Assembly: GCA_049513715.1 (NCBI GenBank)
Contig: JBEKVV010000001.1
Span: 128,001-192,000, forward strand
Length of the DNA stretch: 64,000 nucleotides
DNA from: Candidatus Bathyarchaeia archaeon
Lineage (GTDB): Archaea > Thermoproteota > Bathyarchaeia > 40CM-2-53-6
Direction of reading: 5' to 3'
The notes beneath the pieces are model-generated. The model searched no databases, was not told where the DNA came from, and worked only from the letters and a program-made list of their open reading frames with translations. The position numbers and the translations under genes are program-made. Shown here one piece after another: positions 31,485-44,645 of this stretch (position 1 is its first letter; each line of letters starts with the position of its first letter).

Positions 31485-32090
31485 TTATTCCAGCGGCTTA
31501 TCGAATTGTGCTGTGCTTACTTTCTTGCGAGTCTCAGCCACCAGAGCCATGACAGTTGGTAGCTTGATTTTTTCGAGTTTCGAGAGTATGTCTTCAACTA
31601 TGCGTGCTCGTCGAACCTGTTCATTTCCAAGTGAATATTCTTCGTACGCCCAGAGCAGAGCTTCGATTTTGTCGGCTGCCTTGACGATGCTGGATTCCGT
31701 ATTTTCCATGTCGGCTGTGGCTTTTCTGATCTTGACATATTCGTGGGCAAGCTCCTCGGGAAGCCCTCCCATGAGGTTTTCGAACCATTCCATTGCGCGA
31801 GCATCCAACACCCCCGCGAAGGATGTATCCTGGTGTTTGAATGGGTGGTGAATATCTCCAGTTCTAGCTTCTTCTGCGTCGTGTAGCAAAGCCATTCTCA
31901 GTAGTCTTTCAACATTGACTTGGTTCCCATTCCTAATTTCGAGGTCTGCGAGAATCATTGCATAGAGAGCGGTGAAGTATGAATGCTGAGCTACATCTTC
32001 GCGGATATGGCACTTGTAGACGCTGAATCTTCCCACCGTCATTAGAGACCTTATTGCCAGCAGGAAATCAAGGACTTCTAGATCGACCAA
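31485..32090 (-). CDS. HD-domain 5'-deoxynucleotidase (YfbR-like)
   Basis: EDVAQHS, ALLHDAEEARTGD, VKAADKIE. Confidence 0.9.
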   Translation of the reverse strand: MVDLEVLDFLLAIRSLMTVGRFSVYKCHIREDVAQHSYFTALYAMILADLEIRNGNQVNVERLLRMALLHDAEEARTGDIHHPFKHQDTSFAGVLDARAMEWFENLMGGLPEELAHEYVKIRKATADMENTESSIVKAADKIEALLWAYEEYSLGNEQVRRARIVEDILSKLEKIKLPTVMALVAETRKKVSTAQFDKPLE

Positions 32091-32676: not shown

Positions 32677-33645
32677 ATGTTCACTGAGGATTCAAGAATG
32701 GAAACCGTACCAGGCCTAATGCCGGCTCCAATGGTTGTAAGTGACAGATCTAAGCCAGTCGTGATTAGGCCGCCAGAAGTGAGCTCAGCTCATGATTTCG
32801 CCATGATCGCCTACATCCTGACGTTAATTCTCACTGTTCCGTGGCTCCTCATACTTGGAGTAATTGGGTACTATGGTGCCTTGAACGCCCTCTACCTGTA
32901 TGGTTATGGGGCTCCATACTTCCTGCCCCCGACTGTGCCATCATCAATCATAGGGATACCGCTCATCGGGCCATTCATCGCATTTCTCGTCTTCGTCCTC
33001 ACTCCCTCGTACATTACATACTTGGGCCTAGGAATCGGTGGCCTACTAATCCTCCTAATCTTCTTGCTCATCGTCTACTTCACCACCGTACGCAACATAA
33101 ACCGGGGCCGCTACGAGAGGGCCCGCAATGCCTCACTCTTCTGGGGCGTACTGTTCCTGCTACCCGCCTTCTTCGTCATATTCTCGCCAGTACTCACCGG
33201 AAGCATCGTAGGAATACTTCCAGCGTTCTTCTTCCTGCTAGCGTGGGGAAAACTCAGTGAAGTCATCGCGAAGTACGGGCCGGTCGCGGTTCTAGGTGAA
33301 GCTGTTCCAGGAGCCCCATTCGCGGGCCCACCAGGGCCACCGCCTCCACCAATGGGACTTCCAATGCCTCCACCGATGGGTGGACCGATGGGTGGACCCA
33401 TGGGTGGACCCATGGGTGGACCGATGGGAGCGCCAATGACTGCACCAATGGGAGGACCGATGCCCGCAGGTTCGATGCCACTCGGCGGACCAATGTCAGG
33501 AGGTCCCGCACCTATGCAACCCTCTCAACCGGCGGGTGCACCTTCAAGGATTCCACTGTGCCCGACCTGCGGCAAAGACCTCTACTACGCCGCTAACCAT
33601 AGACGCTGGTATTGCCAGACCTGCGATAACCCAGGCAACCGCTAA
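32677..33645 (+). CDS. Membrane protein with Pro/Met/Gly-rich tail and C-terminal zinc ribbon
   Basis: Several TM helices, PMGG repeats, CPTCG...WYCQTC. Confidence 0.85.
   Translation: MFTEDSRMETVPGLMPAPMVVSDRSKPVVIRPPEVSSAHDFAMIAYILTLILTVPWLLILGVIGYYGALNALYLYGYGAPYFLPPTVPSSIIGIPLIGPFIAFLVFVLTPSYITYLGLGIGGLLILLIFLLIVYFTTVRNINRGRYERARNASLFWGVLFLLPAFFVIFSPVLTGSIVGILPAFFFLLAWGKLSEVIAKYGPVAVLGEAVPGAPFAGPPGPPPPPMGLPMPPPMGGPMGGPMGGPMGGPMGAPMTAPMGGPMPAGSMPLGGPMSGGPAPMQPSQPAGAPSRIPLCPTCGKDLYYAANHRRWYCQTCDNPGNR
33373..33429 (+). repeat. 12-nt coding tandem repeat CC(G/C)ATGGGTGGA (PMGG), 4 copies plus a partial
   Basis: Directly visible; degenerate copies continue to about 33500. Confidence 0.9.
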
Positions 33646-35053: not shown

Positions 35054-35521
35054 TTAGAATTGTCGCAGCACATCCTCACGTTCCATGATGTGCCCACAAT
35101 AGTGGCACCGTAAACGTATCGGTTCCTTCTGGTCCACGCCGAACTGTGGTTCAACAGGTTCTCTGGAATTTGATATACATGCAATGTTATCGCACTTCAA
35201 AATTCCTCTGATGTCGGGCGGAAGTTGCACAACCTTTTTCGAGACCACGCCGTAGTTTCTGATTATGTTGATTGTCGCATTTGGAGCAATCAAGGCGATT
35301 TTGTCGACCTCACCGGGCTTGAGCTCCCGATTCTGAATCTTCACAATATCCTTGTGCTGTTGCCGTTTGCTTTCCACATTCATAGCCACGCTCACAACCT
35401 CGCCGTCCTTGCCGTCGATGCCAAGGATCTTCAATACATCTAACGCGAACCCAGAGGTAATATGGTCGATGACGGAACCGTCTTCAATTTTCTTCACGTA
35501 CAGTTCTTGGCGCGCCTGCAA
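35054..35521 (-). CDS. pyrI: Aspartate carbamoyltransferase regulatory chain
   Basis: GSVIDHI, KDIVKI, APNATINII, CDNIACISN, RCHYC. Confidence 0.96.
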   Translation of the reverse strand: MQARQELYVKKIEDGSVIDHITSGFALDVLKILGIDGKDGEVVSVAMNVESKRQQHKDIVKIQNRELKPGEVDKIALIAPNATINIIRNYGVVSKKVVQLPPDIRGILKCDNIACISNSREPVEPQFGVDQKEPIRLRCHYCGHIMEREDVLRQF

Positions 35522-35592: not shown

Positions 35593-36513
35593 GTGGATTT
35601 CGCTGGGCGTGACATCGTTTCAATAAAGGATTTTTCACGTGAGGAAATTGACTTCGTTCTTCAGATGACAGATGTGGTTGAGCCTATGGCCAAGAACGGA
35701 TCGCACGGGCTCGACGGCAAGATTATGGCCACGCTATTCTTTGAGCCAAGCACCCGCACTAGGTTGAGCTTCGAATCCGCGATGTACCGCTACGGTGGCA
35801 AATGCTTGGGATTCGCGGAACCGAAGGTCGCCTCAGTTCAGAAGGGCGAAAACCTAGCGGACACGGTTCGAGTCGTGGAGAGCTATGCGGACGTTCTTGT
35901 TATTCGGCATCAGCTGGAAGGAGCCGCGCGTCTTGCGGCCGAATTCGCTTCCATACCCGTGATTAATGCAGGCACGGGTGCTGAGGAGCATCCGACACAG
36001 GCCATGCTCGACCTCTACACGATGCGTAAGGAATTTGGCAAGATTGATGGGTTGAACGTGGTTTTGGCCGGCGATCTGAGATACGGTCGCACGGTTCACT
36101 CGCTTGCATATGCACTCTCATTGTACGACATCAACCTGTACTTGGTTTCGCCTTCTATTCTTCGTATGAGGAAGGAGGTCCTTGAAGAAGTACAAGGTCG
36201 AATCAAGATTGAGGAGTTAGAGGACCTTTCGAAAGTCATGTCAAAGGCCGATGTCATCTATATGACCCGGATTCAGAAGGAACGGTTCGGGTCGCTGGAA
36301 GACTATGAGAAAGTCCGTGGGTCTTACCGGCTGACGGCTGAGGATTTGACGGTCGCGAAGCCAAACATGATCGTGATGCACCCGCTGCCTAGGGTTGACG
36401 AAATCGCGGATAGCGTGGACGGAACGCCCCATGCAAAATACTTCAAGCAAGTCTGGTATGGGTTGCTTGTCAGAATGAGCCTCATTGGATTAGTGTTGGG
36501 CGCCCTGAGCTAA
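35593..36513 (+). CDS. pyrB: Aspartate carbamoyltransferase catalytic chain
   Basis: FFEPSTRTRLSF, HPTQ, GDLRYGRTVHS, TRIQKER, MHPLPR. Confidence 0.97.
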   Translation: MDFAGRDIVSIKDFSREEIDFVLQMTDVVEPMAKNGSHGLDGKIMATLFFEPSTRTRLSFESAMYRYGGKCLGFAEPKVASVQKGENLADTVRVVESYADVLVIRHQLEGAARLAAEFASIPVINAGTGAEEHPTQAMLDLYTMRKEFGKIDGLNVVLAGDLRYGRTVHSLAYALSLYDINLYLVSPSILRMRKEVLEEVQGRIKIEELEDLSKVMSKADVIYMTRIQKERFGSLEDYEKVRGSYRLTAEDLTVAKPNMIVMHPLPRVDEIADSVDGTPHAKYFKQVWYGLLVRMSLIGLVLGALS

Positions 36514-36577: not shown

Positions 36578-37336
36578 ATGCGACTCGAAATTCAACCTGC
36601 ATCGCGAAAACGTCGAGTCCTGCCCATGCACGTCGTCAACTACACTGCTTTTCGCGTAGACTTCAAAACCAAGAATGAAGAGAGCGAACTACATCTATTG
36701 GAAAAGTTCCACGCCGCGAGAGTTCTATCTCGAGGCGGCGATGTAGATACTTATGTGGAACCCATACTCTACGACCCTGAAGAGCATTCGAGAAGACTGC
36801 TGACTGCGGACCTAGTAGGTATTCAGGAGGACAACCTCACCGCTGTCTTCTGCGAAACATCACCGCCGGACGAGGCATTGATGAAGGATTTGGAGGTTGT
36901 CGACGGTGCTGAGAATTCCAAAGCGGTCGTGGTTTATCCATTCAGAGTTGATGCTGAACCTATCGATTCAAAGTTCCCTGGCGCCATTGAAAGCGGCAAG
37001 GTAGTGATTGAGCACCTGAATTGGCGCGACCGCGGATTGGAGAAGGCGTTCCGCCAAGCATTGGAACTAATGGACCTTCTGTGCAACGAAACTCGCGTGA
37101 AGATGCTGCTCTCCCTCTTGGAGCACCCACAGGGGAAGAAGCATTTCAGGGAAGACATCAATCCTAAGCTGATCTACGAGAACGTCCCACTCCTGAGAAC
37201 ACACAACATGATAGATGAGCTGTCCGACGACCTGTACGGACTAACGCCGATCGGCACGACGATTCTAGGAGAGTACCTAGCTTTCGTCGAGAAAGTGCGA
37301 GACCTTCTGGAGAAGGGAGACAAGGAAGAAGAGTAA
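36578..37336 (+). CDS. Hypothetical protein: nuclease-like N-terminal domain plus C-terminal winged HTH
   Basis: TADLVG...AVFCET resembles PD-(D/E)xK strands; NETRVKML...YGLTPIG is a wHTH wing. Confidence 0.6.
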   Translation: MRLEIQPASRKRRVLPMHVVNYTAFRVDFKTKNEESELHLLEKFHAARVLSRGGDVDTYVEPILYDPEEHSRRLLTADLVGIQEDNLTAVFCETSPPDEALMKDLEVVDGAENSKAVVVYPFRVDAEPIDSKFPGAIESGKVVIEHLNWRDRGLEKAFRQALELMDLLCNETRVKMLLSLLEHPQGKKHFREDINPKLIYENVPLLRTHNMIDELSDDLYGLTPIGTTILGEYLAFVEKVRDLLEKGDKEEE

Positions 37337-37342
37337 ACGTAG

Positions 37343-37840
37343 GTGGTTCGTTTGAATACGATAGCTGAAGGCCTAGACAAATGTGAGAACTTTGTAGACG
37401 TATTCGAACTCGTCAAGAAGACTGCTGAGAGATCATTGGGTCAACGCCGGGCAGGTCTCATGCTCTACTTGGCCAGACTGCCGAGACACATTGGAGCGTT
37501 CCATACGATGGGGACGAATGGGATTGTGATGAACAGAAACACGTTGGACATAGTCACTCACGGCGCGCGTTCGCTGAGGGAAATCAACTCCTATGTCTAC
37601 TCGATCTTGCTTCACGAGTACCTGCACTCACTTGGGTACGTGGAAGAAAGTGATGTTCGAAAGCTAGTATACGATGTCTCACTCGACGCCTTCGGCCCAG
37701 AGCATCCAGCTACACAAATCGCCTCGAAAGGCCCAAGCGCGGTGTTCCCGGACATTGTTCTAAATGAGTCGCCGACGCAGGACCCTGAAATCGAAGTGAT
37801 CCCTGACTTAGAGGGAAGTAGCCACAGATACATCAGCTAG
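37343..37840 (+). CDS. Zincin-like (HExxH) conserved archaeal protein
   Basis: LLHEYLHSLG...E. Confidence 0.75.
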   Translation: MVRLNTIAEGLDKCENFVDVFELVKKTAERSLGQRRAGLMLYLARLPRHIGAFHTMGTNGIVMNRNTLDIVTHGARSLREINSYVYSILLHEYLHSLGYVEESDVRKLVYDVSLDAFGPEHPATQIASKGPSAVFPDIVLNESPTQDPEIEVIPDLEGSSHRYIS

Positions 37841-37846
37841 CAGAAA

Positions 37847-40120
37847 CTAGCTGGCGAGCGTGTACTCTATTCTCTTGTCCGCGCTCCGCCTCTTTGACTC
37901 GGGCCAAAGATTGAAGGGGAGGAGCCCGTAGGACGCACGGCCAATGTAGGTCAGTTTGTCAGACCCGCATTTGCCGCATTTCGGACCTGTACCCCGGTCG
38001 GTGTTGCCGCAGGCAGTACAAGCGGAGTAGTTCGACGTGTAAGTCAGGAACTTGCAGCCTGCTTGAAAGGCCGCCTCAGTAGTCTTCAGTAAACCCGAGC
38101 CCGAAGAATCTGGCGCCGTACAAATTACGCTCAAATGTCCACCTGGTGTCGCTGATTGGAATTTCGATTCAATTCTTAGCCTAATCTCAATGGGCACCTT
38201 AGCTGTGAGTGGAACGGTGGGCATATCCGTATAGTGAAACAAACCCCGTGACCCATCAGCTACAATTACTGCTCTACCATACTCTTCGATGTCCAATTCA
38301 GCAAGCCGTCCCACAGCTTCATCTCCTGGCCGCTGCGAAACGCGAATTCTCATGTCCGCTTCTTCCGAAGCATCTTTGACGAGCTTCGATGATTCCTCCA
38401 GAATCCTCAAACCGAAATCCACTGCAATCTTGTCCCGATCTATCCTCTGCCCTGTGTGAGCCTCCACCGCCTCGCTAATACCGATCAGAGACAGATTGTA
38501 GGAAGCATTCTTCTCGTAAAAGTAAGGAGCCGAGGAGCTTCCACCTGCCAGCAGAGGCAGCAGTGGCTGCTTGAGCCGTTCGCCGACAAACCTCTTCTTT
38601 GCTTTGAAGCCCTCCACACTTAATGAGATCGATTCCTTGAGTAATGCAAGGAACTTCTCATCGCTCTTTTTTGAGTTGTAAGCAATCCGTGGAAGGTTGA
38701 GGAAGATCGTATCCATGCTCCCCGTTCTAATGCAGTCCGCGTCCCAGTGGCCAGTCCAGTCGTCAGAAATCCTTAGCCCTGTCGCGGAGTAGCTGCTCTT
38801 CTCCCCGTCGCCGATTAGCTCAAAGTAGGGAACACTCCTTGAAGCTGCGAGCTCATGTGCTTTTTCCAAAATCTTCCTAGTTTTCGGGTCGTCTAGCTCC
38901 TTGTGTCTGATTCTTATGATCAGGTGGGGCTGGATTGGCGGCCTAGCCTCAGACACTGTTCGGAAGGCTTCAACGGTTGCCTCGGCCAGCCTGAAGCTCT
39001 CATCTTGGAAATCTGCGTAATGGCCGCTAACTTTTCCTCCGGGCCCAATCGCTTCCTCTTGTGAGAGGAATTCTGGCATTTCTAGGTCAATGGTGAACGA
39101 GGTACCTGATTGTGGGCTGCCTGAGGTAATGTCTCTTCTAATTGATGTGAGAAAATAGGTTAGTGCCTTCGTCGTATCATCCAATTTCCTTCCTCGAACG
39201 TACGGGGCAAGGAATGTGTTGAGATATTCGAGCGTTTGTTCACCGGAGACTTCTCCCGAACCCATGTCGAGCACTTGTCTCACCAGAGTCAAAGCTCCCT
39301 CGAATGTTTCTGGAGGCTCTGTTCCTGGAAGGCTATTGCGTAAGAAATAGCGAAGGTCATGGACGATTTCGTTTGGTTTGAGTATCCAATTCTCTAGGTT
39401 TGCGATGTGTATCGATCCTGATAGGTGTGCGTCAGCCAGCTTATGGGGTAAGCAATTCAGCAAGACATACTCGGAGAGCACGGATTTAGCGGAAGAACGA
39501 TGAACGAAGTCCGCACTTAACTGGCTATCGCCCGCATTTCGAATAAGCTGAGCGACATCATAGACGGGCATGCCGAGCCTCGTGAGTTTGTGGCGATACT
39601 CCTCCAGCCTCTTCTCGATGAGGATGGCGTTTACGAATTCGCGAATCAAAGGCGCTGTCAAGTACACAGTCCTCAACCTAATGAGGCGGTCCTCTGCTTC
39701 CGCGGCAATTTCATCAGCAATTTCCTGCGGGACACCTGCCTCCACCACAAGGGATTTGGCGATCTTGTTGCGGTGAAATTCCTCTATCGCGAGTCTGGAT
39801 GTACGAACGTAGAGTTTACCGCGCTTCACGTTCACATATTCGTCCATGTCTCTTGCGAATGAGACGATCATTCGGCCGAGTTCAGTCAGCTCGTACTTCT
39901 TTGTCTTCTTATCCAGCGTGACCAAGCCAGTGCTTGTTAGACTTCGAAGATGGTAGACGAATTTGCCAGCGTCGCGGACAGGGTCGAGCTTCAGTTGAAA
40001 CATTATTTCTGTATACTGGAGTGAGCCCTTGATCGAAAGCAGTCGCAATATTTGTAGTCGAACGGGCGCCGACGCGGCGTCAAAGATGCTGGCACCGACT
40101 CTCTCCGATGAACGTTGCAA
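37847..40120 (-). CDS. ArsR-type HTH + ATP-cone + class III ribonucleotide reductase (NrdD)-like protein, catalytic residues absent
   Basis: RLQILRLL...YHLRSL...YELTELG (wHTH); VRTS...EEFHRNKI...TAPLIRE (ATP cone); DAHLSGSIHI, LNLPR, TPGGH, CTAC...CGKC (NrdD body). Confidence 0.88.
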   Translation of the reverse strand: MQRSSERVGASIFDAASAPVRLQILRLLSIKGSLQYTEIMFQLKLDPVRDAGKFVYHLRSLTSTGLVTLDKKTKKYELTELGRMIVSFARDMDEYVNVKRGKLYVRTSRLAIEEFHRNKIAKSLVVEAGVPQEIADEIAAEAEDRLIRLRTVYLTAPLIREFVNAILIEKRLEEYRHKLTRLGMPVYDVAQLIRNAGDSQLSADFVHRSSAKSVLSEYVLLNCLPHKLADAHLSGSIHIANLENWILKPNEIVHDLRYFLRNSLPGTEPPETFEGALTLVRQVLDMGSGEVSGEQTLEYLNTFLAPYVRGRKLDDTTKALTYFLTSIRRDITSGSPQSGTSFTIDLEMPEFLSQEEAIGPGGKVSGHYADFQDESFRLAEATVEAFRTVSEARPPIQPHLIIRIRHKELDDPKTRKILEKAHELAASRSVPYFELIGDGEKSSYSATGLRISDDWTGHWDADCIRTGSMDTIFLNLPRIAYNSKKSDEKFLALLKESISLSVEGFKAKKRFVGERLKQPLLPLLAGGSSSAPYFYEKNASYNLSLIGISEAVEAHTGQRIDRDKIAVDFGLRILEESSKLVKDASEEADMRIRVSQRPGDEAVGRLAELDIEEYGRAVIVADGSRGLFHYTDMPTVPLTAKVPIEIRLRIESKFQSATPGGHLSVICTAPDSSGSGLLKTTEAAFQAGCKFLTYTSNYSACTACGNTDRGTGPKCGKCGSDKLTYIGRASYGLLPFNLWPESKRRSADKRIEYTLAS

Positions 40121-40265
40121 CTCAATACCGCCTAGAAGGTGAATTACAAGTACTATAGGCATGGGGTTATGTTTAAAAAATTGTAGTTGCGTGCATCTCG
40201 ACAGATTACGTACAGTTTATTTGAGATTAATCAAGCCGTGGCGCCGTCGACAGCCGAGAGTGGAG

Positions 40266-40792
40266 ATGAAGAACTTGGGCGAATTGCGCATGAACGAAGC
40301 CGATTACGCGAAACTCGCAGAGCTAGAAGACGCCTTCGAAAGGAAGGACCTTGAATACTTCAAGACTTTCCTAGGAAAATCGAGTGGTCTTCCCTTGCTG
40401 TTGCGTGTTCACTCTGTCTGCATGTTAGAGCACATGGGAAACGAAGACATTGTGAAGGCACTTGGTCAGGTCTTGAGAGATGACCCTAGCCCACTAACAA
40501 GGCATGAAGCAGCCTTCACCCCGGCCAGCTAGGTTTCCGCTCAGCCGTACCAGCACTTGTTGAAGCAATGCTCGAGGACGAGAGCCCCATTGTACGGCAT
40601 GAGTCGGCGGTAGCCCTAAGCTCGATTGGGGCAGAAGATGCGCTCCCTGAACTGGAACGAGCAATCAACGATAAGAACGAGGATGTCAGCAACTCTGCTC
40701 TTATTGCCTCCGAATATTTGACCTATCTGAGTCGAAAACGTGATAGTGTCAGCAAAGTCGGAGCGACCTTGAAACCTAAGATTCGCCTATAG
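40266..40792 (+). pseudogene. HEAT-repeat protein resembling half of deoxyhypusine hydroxylase; 1-nt frameshift (real or sequencing error)
   Basis: RHEAAFT continues as GQLGFRSAVPALVEAMLEDESPIVRHESAVALSSIG if one base is added at 40519-40522. Confidence 0.75.
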
Positions 40793-43991: not shown

Positions 43992-44645
43992 CTACCTGAA
44001 TCTCGTTCCGCATCTGTCGCAGAAGCTAGCATAGTACGCTAGTGGTGCTCCGCAGGTTGGGCACGAACCAAAGGCCCCGGGTTGTTGGAAGGGCACTTGC
44101 TGTGGTTGCGGGTAGTAGGGTTGTGGTGCAGGTTGCGGAAAAGCTGTGGGTGGGTAGGCAGCTGGCGGGTATGGGGGCGAGGCAGGAGGATACATTGGTA
44201 CGCCTGGTCGTGCTATTAGGGGAGGTCCAACGGGTCGCCCGAAGAAAGCTCGCACATTGGCCGTGCTGAGGTAGGCGAGAATCAGCCCGTAGAAGATTAT
44301 CGGGATGACGTTGGCAAGGCTACCGAAAATCAACCCCACGATTGCGATTATGAGGCCGATAATTGAGATTATCATTGTAGCTGTCCACGCCCACGGCCGC
44401 CCGGTCCAGAGCCCGTAAGCCAACACGAATGAGATGAATCCGAACGCGAAATAGGCTATGGCTAGAGGAATCAGAAAGAAAGCGAAGGCCGCTGAGAACC
44501 CCATGCCAACAAATGATAGGGCGAACGCGTAAACCGCCAAAAGAATGATACCGATCAATATGTCAATGAAACCAACAAGGATCTGCAGTACTGTCAGAAT
44601 CGTAACGCCAGGCAGCCTTGGAGGCCGGAACATGACTGGGATCAT
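43992..44645 (-). CDS. Membrane protein with Pro/Tyr/Gln-rich tail and zinc ribbon
   Basis: 4 TM (GLWTGRPWAW), YPPASPPYPP..., CPTCG...FCDRCG. Confidence 0.85.
   Translation of the reverse strand: MIPVMFRPPRLPGVTILTVLQILVGFIDILIGIILLAVYAFALSFVGMGFSAAFAFFLIPLAIAYFAFGFISFVLAYGLWTGRPWAWTATMIISIIGLIIAIVGLIFGSLANVIPIIFYGLILAYLSTANVRAFFGRPVGPPLIARPGVPMYPPASPPYPPAAYPPTAFPQPAPQPYYPQPQQVPFQQPGAFGSCPTCGAPLAYYASFCDRCGTRFR

Follow-up and report, generated by a model that had tools for sequence, protein, structure and literature searches.

Why would an archaeon maintain a full-length gene of the class III (anaerobic) ribonucleotide reductase (RNR) family, NrdD, in which the thiyl-radical cysteine, the second active-site cysteine and the radical glycine have all been replaced, and to which a winged helix has been joined? 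The question is raised by a gene, referred to here as the dead NrdD gene, found in a stretch of 64,000 nucleotides (the window) from a Candidatus Bathyarchaeia archaeon (assembly GCA_049513715.1, contig JBEKVV010000001.1, positions 128,001 to 192,000). An earlier note, made from the letters of the window alone, had proposed that the product is a pseudo-enzyme using the nucleotide sites of RNR to control DNA binding, or else a regulatory partner of an active NrdD. The first of these proposals gains support here from the loss of motifs, the selection acting on the gene, the predicted fold, the presence of a separate class II reductase (NrdJ), the adjacency of reductase genes in other genomes and a shared promoter element. 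Judged from these sequence comparisons, we consider it probable that the dead class III reductase acts as a transcription factor that senses nucleotides and controls reductase genes, and that it is probably autoregulated.

Loss of catalytic residues in a conserved reductase fold

The coding sequence, its domains and the motifs discussed below are as follows, with residue numbers given throughout in a 771-aa frame:

37847..40120, (-) strand: dead NrdD coding sequence with its stop codon; 757 aa when read from the TTG at 40120
39860..40090, (-) strand: winged helix-turn-helix, residues 25-101; DUF7347, 34.2 bits
39584..39811, (-) strand: variant ATP-cone, residues 118-193; beta-hairpin and four helices; VRTSR
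37862..39517, (-) strand: ten-stranded barrel core like that of NrdD, with the C-terminal domain; residues 216-767; PF13597
39368..39376, (-) strand: PNE instead of P-N-C (second active-site Cys, T4 Cys79), residues 263-265
38771..38782, (-) strand: TGLR finger-loop tip instead of (M/C)GCR, residues 461-464; Leu463 at the position of the thiyl-radical Cys
37967..38020, (-) strand: Cys4 zinc site, CTAC and CGKC, intact; C715, C718, C729 and C732
37925..37939, (-) strand: RASYG instead of the glycyl-radical R(I/V)xGY, residues 742-746

Alignment to solved NrdD enzymes places T4 N78-C79 over N264-E265, T4 MGC290R over TGL463R and T. maritima RIVGY over RASYG, with Tyr745 at the position of the radical glycine and Gly746 one residue off. 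The PNE, TGLR and RASYG variants and the CTAC/CGKC site lie where they had been read from the window. The protein reaches 236.8 bits on the NCBIfam NrdD equivalog TIGR02487, against a cut-off of 326.35, and the true NrdD of a related genome (G044) scores 553.1 bits on the same model.

These replacements characterize the family as a whole. A word-indexed search listed 120 homologues with 53-100% identity, most of them with a winged helix and the NRDD domain and, where named, labelled as anaerobic ribonucleoside-triphosphate reductases of Bathyarchaeia, and an exhaustive search of 50%-identity representatives gave 1764 relatives at E<=0.001. The query, the 120 homologues and the best 150 of the 1764 representatives were classified (271 proteins) using winged-helix and cone profiles together with motif searches in the aligned segments. 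Among the 209 proteins with a winged helix and one cone, none keeps R[IVL]xGY near the C-terminus and a single one keeps a GCR-like finger; 13 have some Cys in the PNE segment, none of them at the equivalent position, and 195 have neither a finger Cys, nor a Cys in the PNE segment, nor the glycine motif. This is the consistent loss under selection that the earlier note had anticipated, and close homologues fused to a helix-turn-helix (HTH) were not found to keep MGCR and RxxGY beyond that one finger. Of the 62 classified proteins without the winged helix, 14 keep all three signatures, many of the others being fragments or intein-containing. The protein with the GCR-like finger, P0135 (711 aa), has SSGCR at this position, while its second Cys and glycine motif are gone, and it may be an evolutionary intermediate.

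The residue at the PNE site varies across the family (T, E, S, N or D), and the glycyl-radical stretch is entirely missing in 43-48 of 90 winged-helix representatives. The zinc cysteines are present in 68-69 of the same 90 proteins, the region being missing in the other 21-22, with no substitution at all, and none of the non-zinc cysteines (C237, C477, C681 and C703) is conserved among these representatives.

The dead gene is maintained by strong purifying selection in all of its domains. The ratio of non-synonymous to synonymous substitution rates (dN/dS) was estimated by the Nei-Gojobori method on 11 pairs, and for the whole gene it ranged from 0.03 to 0.11 in the seven pairs with unsaturated dS. 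By domain, the values were 0.00-0.02 for the cone, 0.02-0.07 for the winged helix, 0.04-0.15 for the barrel and 0.06-0.13 for the C-terminal part. The gene is present in 58 of 61 related genomes and in all 27 of those of high quality, with copies that are frameshifted in G004 and G006 and in pieces in G017. Internal stops flagged in G001, G011, G041 and G049 were set aside, as they precede the true start and leave the 757-aa frames uninterrupted, and a 1668-aa open frame in G039 (locus L062) is an artefact in which a P-type ATPase is read through into the gene beside a run of N. In genomes sampled across the phylum, a 201-aa query comprising the winged helix and the cone was matched in 277 of 401, being found in every genome of some families (56/56, 24/24 and 17/17) and in none of others (0/23, 0/16 and 0/15).

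The predicted structure is that of an NrdD, as the earlier note had expected. The AlphaFold2 model, built on a 94-sequence alignment, has a mean predicted local distance difference test score of 92.4 and a predicted template-modelling score of 0.83, and it shows the winged helix, then a beta-hairpin with four helices (the topology of an ATP-cone), then the barrel. The top matches found by Foldseek in the PDB are all class III reductases (P. copri 8p2s, S. thermophilus 9dca, T. maritima 4coi/4u3e and T4 1hk8), with E from 1e-28 to 1e-20 and target TM-scores of 0.64-0.77, and other glycyl-radical enzymes and class I RNR rank below, at about 1e-9. In Pfam, NRDD (PF13597) covers residues 216-767 with E 3.3e-62; the winged helix belongs to the archaeal DUF7347 (residues 25-101) with 34.2 bits against a cut-off of 27.6. 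With the Cys4 site intact, the layout of winged helix, cone and full-length barrel that had been read from the sequence is supported. The ArsR-type HTH_5 profile stays below its cut-off on the winged helix (18 bits vs 22, E 0.0027), as does HTH_metalloreg (22.1 bits vs 55). The modelled topology of this domain is H-H-H-strand-strand, and its putative recognition helix is RDAGKFVYHLRSL, the family consensus reading DAGKFxYHLR.

The ATP-cone is of a variant form. Using hmmscan, PF03477 scores 21.5 bits over residues 118-189 against a cut-off of 25.8, a six-frame search of the genome with the ATP-cone profile gives 25.7 to 26.1 bits on the dead NrdD stretch, and relatives with a VRTS-form cone score up to 70 bits. 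VRTSR aligns to VIKRD of the S. thermophilus NrdD cone, the canonical form being V-x-K-R-D, in which the Lys-Arg after the first strand provides phosphate ligands. Since the nearest active archaeal NrdDs also have a VRTS(R/K) cone, this form is inherited and not a product of decay. The cone is the best-conserved part of the protein, as V119 is found in 90, R120 in 88, S122 in 83, E127 in 85, F129 in 89 and I134 in 90 of 90 representatives.

A phylogeny of the cone-plus-barrel columns was obtained with FastTree, a quick method, its root being untested. In this tree, 81 winged-helix proteins and P0189, in which a winged helix was not detected, form one clade with a Shimodaira-Hasegawa-like support of 100, and the active enzymes fall outside. 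P0201, a dead protein with two cones, is sister to the clade (support 99), and because of this placement we tentatively suggest that catalysis was lost first and that the winged helix then replaced the first cone.

The longest open reading frame (ORF) at the locus extends over 37847..40162 on the (-) strand and encodes 771 aa from the first ATG at 40162. Translation more likely starts at the TTG at 40120, because the TTG and an upstream GGAGG or GGCGG are kept in relatives that lack the upstream ATG, as seen in loci L049 and L050; homologues of 757 aa also exist. The coordinates 37847..40120 and the TTG start proposed from the window alone agree with this conservation. Among the RNA runs listed, none covered the gene (37700-40400).

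Reductase genes and their promoters

The genome of the window (G000; 11 contigs totalling 2.79 Mb, with a completeness of 99.4% and a contamination of 8.8%) has, on the evidence of profile scores, a working reductase of another class. This is an adenosylcobalamin-dependent class II NrdJ, encoded on contig C6, with 664 bits on TIGR02504 against a cut-off of 400 and a canonical KRDG ATP-cone, and it answers to the separate active RNR that the earlier note had suggested looking for. No other NrdD was found, the dead gene being the sole NRDD match in the genome. An NrdG activase, which had been reported missing from the surroundings of the gene, was found neither nearby nor genome-wide, the best scores being 47.5 bits on TIGR02495 (cut-off 131.15) and 27.3 bits on TIGR02491 (cut-off 126.1), both far below the cut-offs and both from generic radical S-adenosylmethionine proteins. 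The genome likewise has zero matches to TIGR00244 (NrdR), and a profile search found only two ATP-cones in it. As this genome has no other NrdD, the alternative offered by the earlier note, a partner of an active NrdD, does not apply to it.

The class II ORF (G000 contig C6, ~99384-102908, (-) strand; locus L099, 3385-6909) encodes 1174 aa, compared with ~860 in relatives. The PF02867 match in this ORF is interrupted by ~800 nt, and residues 406-703 are covered by an intein-type NCBIfam model; nrdJ probably contains an intein.

Class II reductases occur in 53 of the 61 relatives, and families f7 and f9 (0/3 each) account for six of the eight genomes without one. These six genomes carry a second NrdD-like match, confirmed as a true NrdD in f9, so that the dead protein accompanies either class of reductase. 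Moreover, the dead gene is found beside reductase genes of both classes. In G044, G052 and G039, a true class III nrdD (QCCR finger, RPFC and RITGYY) lies directly downstream on the same strand. Five further genomes were sampled from other families, and among these G220 has a glutaredoxin-like gene followed by a true nrdD right downstream of the dead gene, and G080 has a class II gene divergent from it, ~0.7 kb away. The glutaredoxin-like gene of G220 (L110, 3052-3357, (+) strand), with a CTRC motif judged by eye, stands immediately upstream of nrdD, and its product may be a reductant partner of the class III enzyme.

Some of the reductase promoters in the 61 genomes share a 20-nt element, TATACA-N4-TGTCKAAAAC, which we call the RNR box and which is located before class II genes in two genera and before class III genes in a third. 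The class II promoters of one genus have the invariant block GTACAATATTTTATACAATTCTGTCGAAAACTATTAAAG across at least 11 genomes, those of the second genus have GTACACGATTATATACACAATTGTCGAAAACTATTAAA, and the class III nrdD promoters of the third have ATTTTATACAGAATTGTCTAAAACTTATATGC. The search pattern TATACANNNNTGTCKAAAAC, taken from these class II and class III blocks and used with at most one mismatch, gave 24 matches in 21 of the 61 genomes, typically one per genome, and its reversed control gave 4. Eighteen of the 24 matches lie ~0.9 kb upstream of the class II PF02867 domain, i.e., in the promoter, and three lie ~100 nt upstream of a class III nrdD, one of them in G058, whose nrdD and dead gene are on separate contigs. 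The two reductase classes preceded by this box have coding sequences with only a remote relationship to each other, and the box thus points to a shared regulator.

Three box matches were not counted with these promoters. The match in G014:C3 (~39040-39400; L104, 3540-3900, (-) strand) is a near-identical duplicate of the nrdJ promoter and leader, which stands before a 10-codon ORF and a 180-aa gene without a significant Pfam match. The matches in G013:C5 and G015:C50 stand before genes to which Pfam gives no clear assignment; near the latter, the sole Pfam match is to an InlB B-repeat domain, in a 767-aa ORF located farther downstream.

The dead gene has a conserved promoter element of its own:

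40170..40189, (-) strand: promoter element CAACTACAATTTTTTAAACA, ending ~50 nt upstream of the TTG start

This element is probably the region of the transcription factor B recognition element and TATA box, and it possibly also includes an operator. A TTTTAAA-type element is found at a similar upstream position in 44 of 49 own-gene loci of the order, the five exceptions including two with runs of N and one that is truncated. The consensus of the own promoters is (A/T)ACT(A/C)(C/T)A(A/G)TTTTTTAAAC, of which TTTTTTAAAC occurs once in the 2.79-Mb genome, and the element is also present in G220, a genome of another order (27.9 bits). When a weight matrix built only from the own-gene promoters of other genomes was run over the genome, the own site ranked first of 5.59 million positions (31.1 bits, the next best having 17.4), and the nrdJ promoter ranked seventh with 13.0 bits. 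The nrdJ promoter (G000 C6, ~102790-102900) holds TATACAATTCTGTCGAAAAC and TACAAT repeats. The string TACAATWTTTTAWAC occurs exactly twice in the genome, in the own promoter and in the nrdJ promoter, and since the pattern was derived from these two sites the matrix rank is the fairer figure. Across genomes, 13 of 28 class II promoters score at an empirical p<0.01, with the site in each case 155-260 nt ahead of the cone motif, and an independent scoring promoter is that of G046 (AAACTACAATTTTTTATATA, 21.7 bits). If TTTTTTAAAC and ATTTTATAC are TATA boxes, then ACA-N4-TGTC falls between the TATA box and the transcription start. This is a common place for archaeal repressor sites.

The search for further targets in G000 gave only high matrix matches within coding regions or before unrelated or unnamed genes, and the matches at an amino-acid permease, an FAD oxidoreductase, a GNAT-like protein, a tRNA intron endonuclease and hypothetical proteins were set aside. 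It was also observed that AT-rich hexamers are strongly depleted genome-wide and cluster upstream of genes, as TTTAAA is found 164 times in 5.6 million positions compared with ~1360 expected under equal base frequencies, that TTTAAA is enriched 6.5-fold upstream of genes, and that TTTTTAAA has only 8 occurrences in the genome.

We propose the dead protein as the regulator acting at the RNR box because it is tied by position to reductase genes, is itself derived from a reductase, and has a promoter that shares the left flank of the box region. In the mechanism that we envisage, the protein would dimerize like NrdD, and its ATP-cone, perhaps with relic substrate or specificity sites of the barrel, would bind ATP, dATP or deoxyribonucleoside triphosphates (dNTPs). 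A nucleotide-dependent change of conformation or oligomer would then place the two winged helices on promoter DNA. Its targets would be reductase genes, which in this genome means the class II nrdJ of contig C6, and probably also the promoter of the dead gene itself, so that reductase transcription would follow the dNTP pool, the role that NrdR has in bacteria. The NrdD-like dimerization, the binding of nucleotides by the cone and of DNA by the winged helix, and the sign of the regulation are inferred. A wider reading, to which we lean less and give slightly under even weight, is that the protein would be the missing archaeal master regulator of dNTP supply, reading the pool through its inherited sites and binding the RNR box at either class of reductase and at its own promoter, an analogue of NrdR that would have arisen independently from the very enzyme that is controlled.

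Several observations weigh against a regulator of this kind. The dead NrdD protein is no more than a candidate binder of the RNR box. Of 19 genera, only 3 yielded the strict box; neither the f7 genomes searched (G050 and G056), which use class III, nor the intergenic region of G080 gave a match, the best matrix score in the latter being 0.6 bits. What the own promoter shares with reductase promoters is only the left, TATA-like flank, the 13 scoring class II promoters come mostly from close kin and mostly from one genus, and AT-rich words are rare in the genome outside promoters, which inflates the apparent specificity of the matrix. Besides, T121-S122 replace the canonical Lys-Arg of the cone, and the binding of ATP or dATP by this domain is not assured. 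Regarding position, the dead gene is not beside a reductase gene in three of the five genomes sampled from other families, and in the window it is convergent with pyrB, its most constant neighbour, and hence not co-transcribed with it.

Neighbouring genes and alternative explanations

For 21 loci, as much as 8 kb to either side of the dead gene was compared. The neighbours in the window that bear on its function are:

35593..36513, (+) strand: pyrB (aspartate carbamoyltransferase catalytic chain), convergent neighbour in 18/21 loci
35054..35521, (-) strand: pyrI (aspartate carbamoyltransferase regulatory chain), divergent from pyrB, in 11/21 loci
31485-32090, (-) strand: YfbR-like 5'-deoxynucleotidase, HD domain, 6 kb from the dead gene

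This neighbourhood is the basis of the alternative that survives best, namely that the protein is a nucleotide-sensing transcription factor whose main targets are genes of pyrimidine synthesis and nucleoside salvage (pyrB, pyrI and nucleoside uptake) instead of reductases. The constancy of pyrB, followed by that of pyrI, speaks in its favour, and two of the three loci lacking pyrB hold a PnrA-type nucleoside ATP-binding cassette transporter and a nucleoside phosphorylase. Such neighbours from nucleotide metabolism, the 5'-deoxynucleotidase among them, also speak for a regulator of reductase genes. However, the convergent pyrB shares no promoter with the dead gene, and the pyrB-pyrI spacer gave no match to the own-promoter matrix (4.4 and -0.7 bits), the shared elements being located at reductase promoters instead. 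We therefore regard this alternative as unlikely, though it is the strongest of those considered.

Other features of the neighbourhood are recorded here. The YfbR-like 5'-deoxynucleotidase is found near the dead gene in three loci, that of the window and L056 and L066, which are from another family. The genes pyrI and pyrB do not form a pyrBI operon but are divergent, with a 71-nt spacer separating them, an arrangement seen in 11 of the 21 loci compared in the order. Two genes without Pfam or NCBIfam matches (36578-37336 and 37343-37840, both on the (+) strand) lie between pyrB and the dead gene. One has a winged-helix-like C-terminus, the other carries HEYLH, a metalloprotease-like motif, and the two are present in only 5 of the 21 loci, every one from the genus of the window. 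Two membrane proteins (32677-33645, (+) strand, and 43992-44645, (-) strand) have Pro/Gly/Met-rich repeats (PMGGPMGGP...) and a C-terminal zinc-ribbon-like CxxC...CxxC, with only a weak zinc-ribbon match in Pfam.

A less probable alternative, in our judgement an improbable one, is that the protein has no catalysis of its own and serves an active reductase as a subunit or allosteric partner, for example by sequestering or modulating NrdJ or NrdD, with the winged helix making protein contacts or having a side role. RNRs work as oligomers regulated by their ATP-cones, purifying selection acts on the barrel and the C-terminal domain (dN/dS 0.04-0.15), and the dead gene co-occurs with a class II or a class III enzyme, all of which would suit a partner. 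Nonetheless, there is no NrdD in this genome to pair with, and NrdJ, being of class II, has another variant of the fold. Moreover, constraint on the winged helix is among the strongest in the protein (dN/dS 0.02-0.07), with a recognition helix conserved family-wide, and about half of the representatives have lost the glycyl-radical stretch yet keep the winged helix.

That the protein is still an enzyme, acting on nucleotides by non-radical chemistry or with a radical recruited otherwise, is very improbable, since the barrel motifs held in common with active NrdDs (AHxxGxIH, NLPR, GLxEA, RLAxLD and GGH) and the intact zinc site, which could speak for catalysis, suit fold and nucleotide binding equally well, whereas only zinc-ligand cysteines are conserved, the glycine motif is found in 0/209 winged-helix members, many members lack the glycyl-radical stretch and an activase was not found in the genome.

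Comparison with known systems

A literature search, in which subscription journals were thinly covered, did not find a description of HTH-fused or inactive NrdD homologues, or of an archaeal regulator of this kind; the RNR box and the resemblance of the own promoter to its left flank are new here, as is the placing of the dead gene beside a working reductase gene in several lineages. If the proposed function is true, the family would be a clear case of an enzyme turned into a sensor of its own pathway. The present labelling of its members as anaerobic reductases also matters in practice, as metabolic reconstructions could credit aerobic or class II-only archaea with an anaerobic enzyme that they lack. 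Besides, the RNR box provides a concrete DNA probe for binding experiments.

The closest structural counterparts are the NrdD enzymes themselves (T4 1h78/1hk8, T. maritima 4coi/4u3e, P. copri 8p23/8p2s and S. thermophilus 9d3x), which match the dead protein in fold over ~550-650 residues, in the Cys4 zinc site and in having an ATP-cone at the N-terminus; its nearest active relatives are archaeal NrdDs with a VRTS-type cone. The dead protein differs from them in lacking the thiyl Cys, the second Cys and the radical glycine, and in carrying a winged helix where its active relatives carry the first ATP-cone. The dead NrdD-like proteins with two cones (P0201, P0229, P0179, P0190 and P0218) show the same loss of Cys and Gly; where the winged-helix family has its winged helix, they carry another ATP-cone, and hence no obvious DNA-binding part.

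In function, the nearest parallel would be NrdR, the RNR-specific repressor of bacteria, which is described as a Zn-ribbon joined to an ATP-cone, with boxes at reductase promoters and often at its own, and as rare in archaea (PMC9110341). The proposed logic is alike on that description, since in both cases a DNA-binding module joined to an ATP-cone would act at reductase promoters. The two proteins differ in build, as NrdR has a Zn-ribbon and ~150 aa, whereas the dead protein has a winged helix, ~750 aa and a whole dead barrel, a cone without the canonical Lys-Arg and no match to TIGR00244.

In origin, the dead protein can be compared with NrtR, the Nudix-related regulator of genes for nicotinamide adenine dinucleotide (NAD), a transcription factor derived from an enzyme (PMC2330246). 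In NrtR, as by our proposal in the dead protein, an enzyme fold is kept as an effector-binding domain and fused to a winged helix, and both are routinely annotated as enzymes. The enzyme fold and the pathway are different in NrtR, and in the family described here up to three nucleotide sites inherited from the enzyme would sit on a large radical-enzyme scaffold acting as the sensor.

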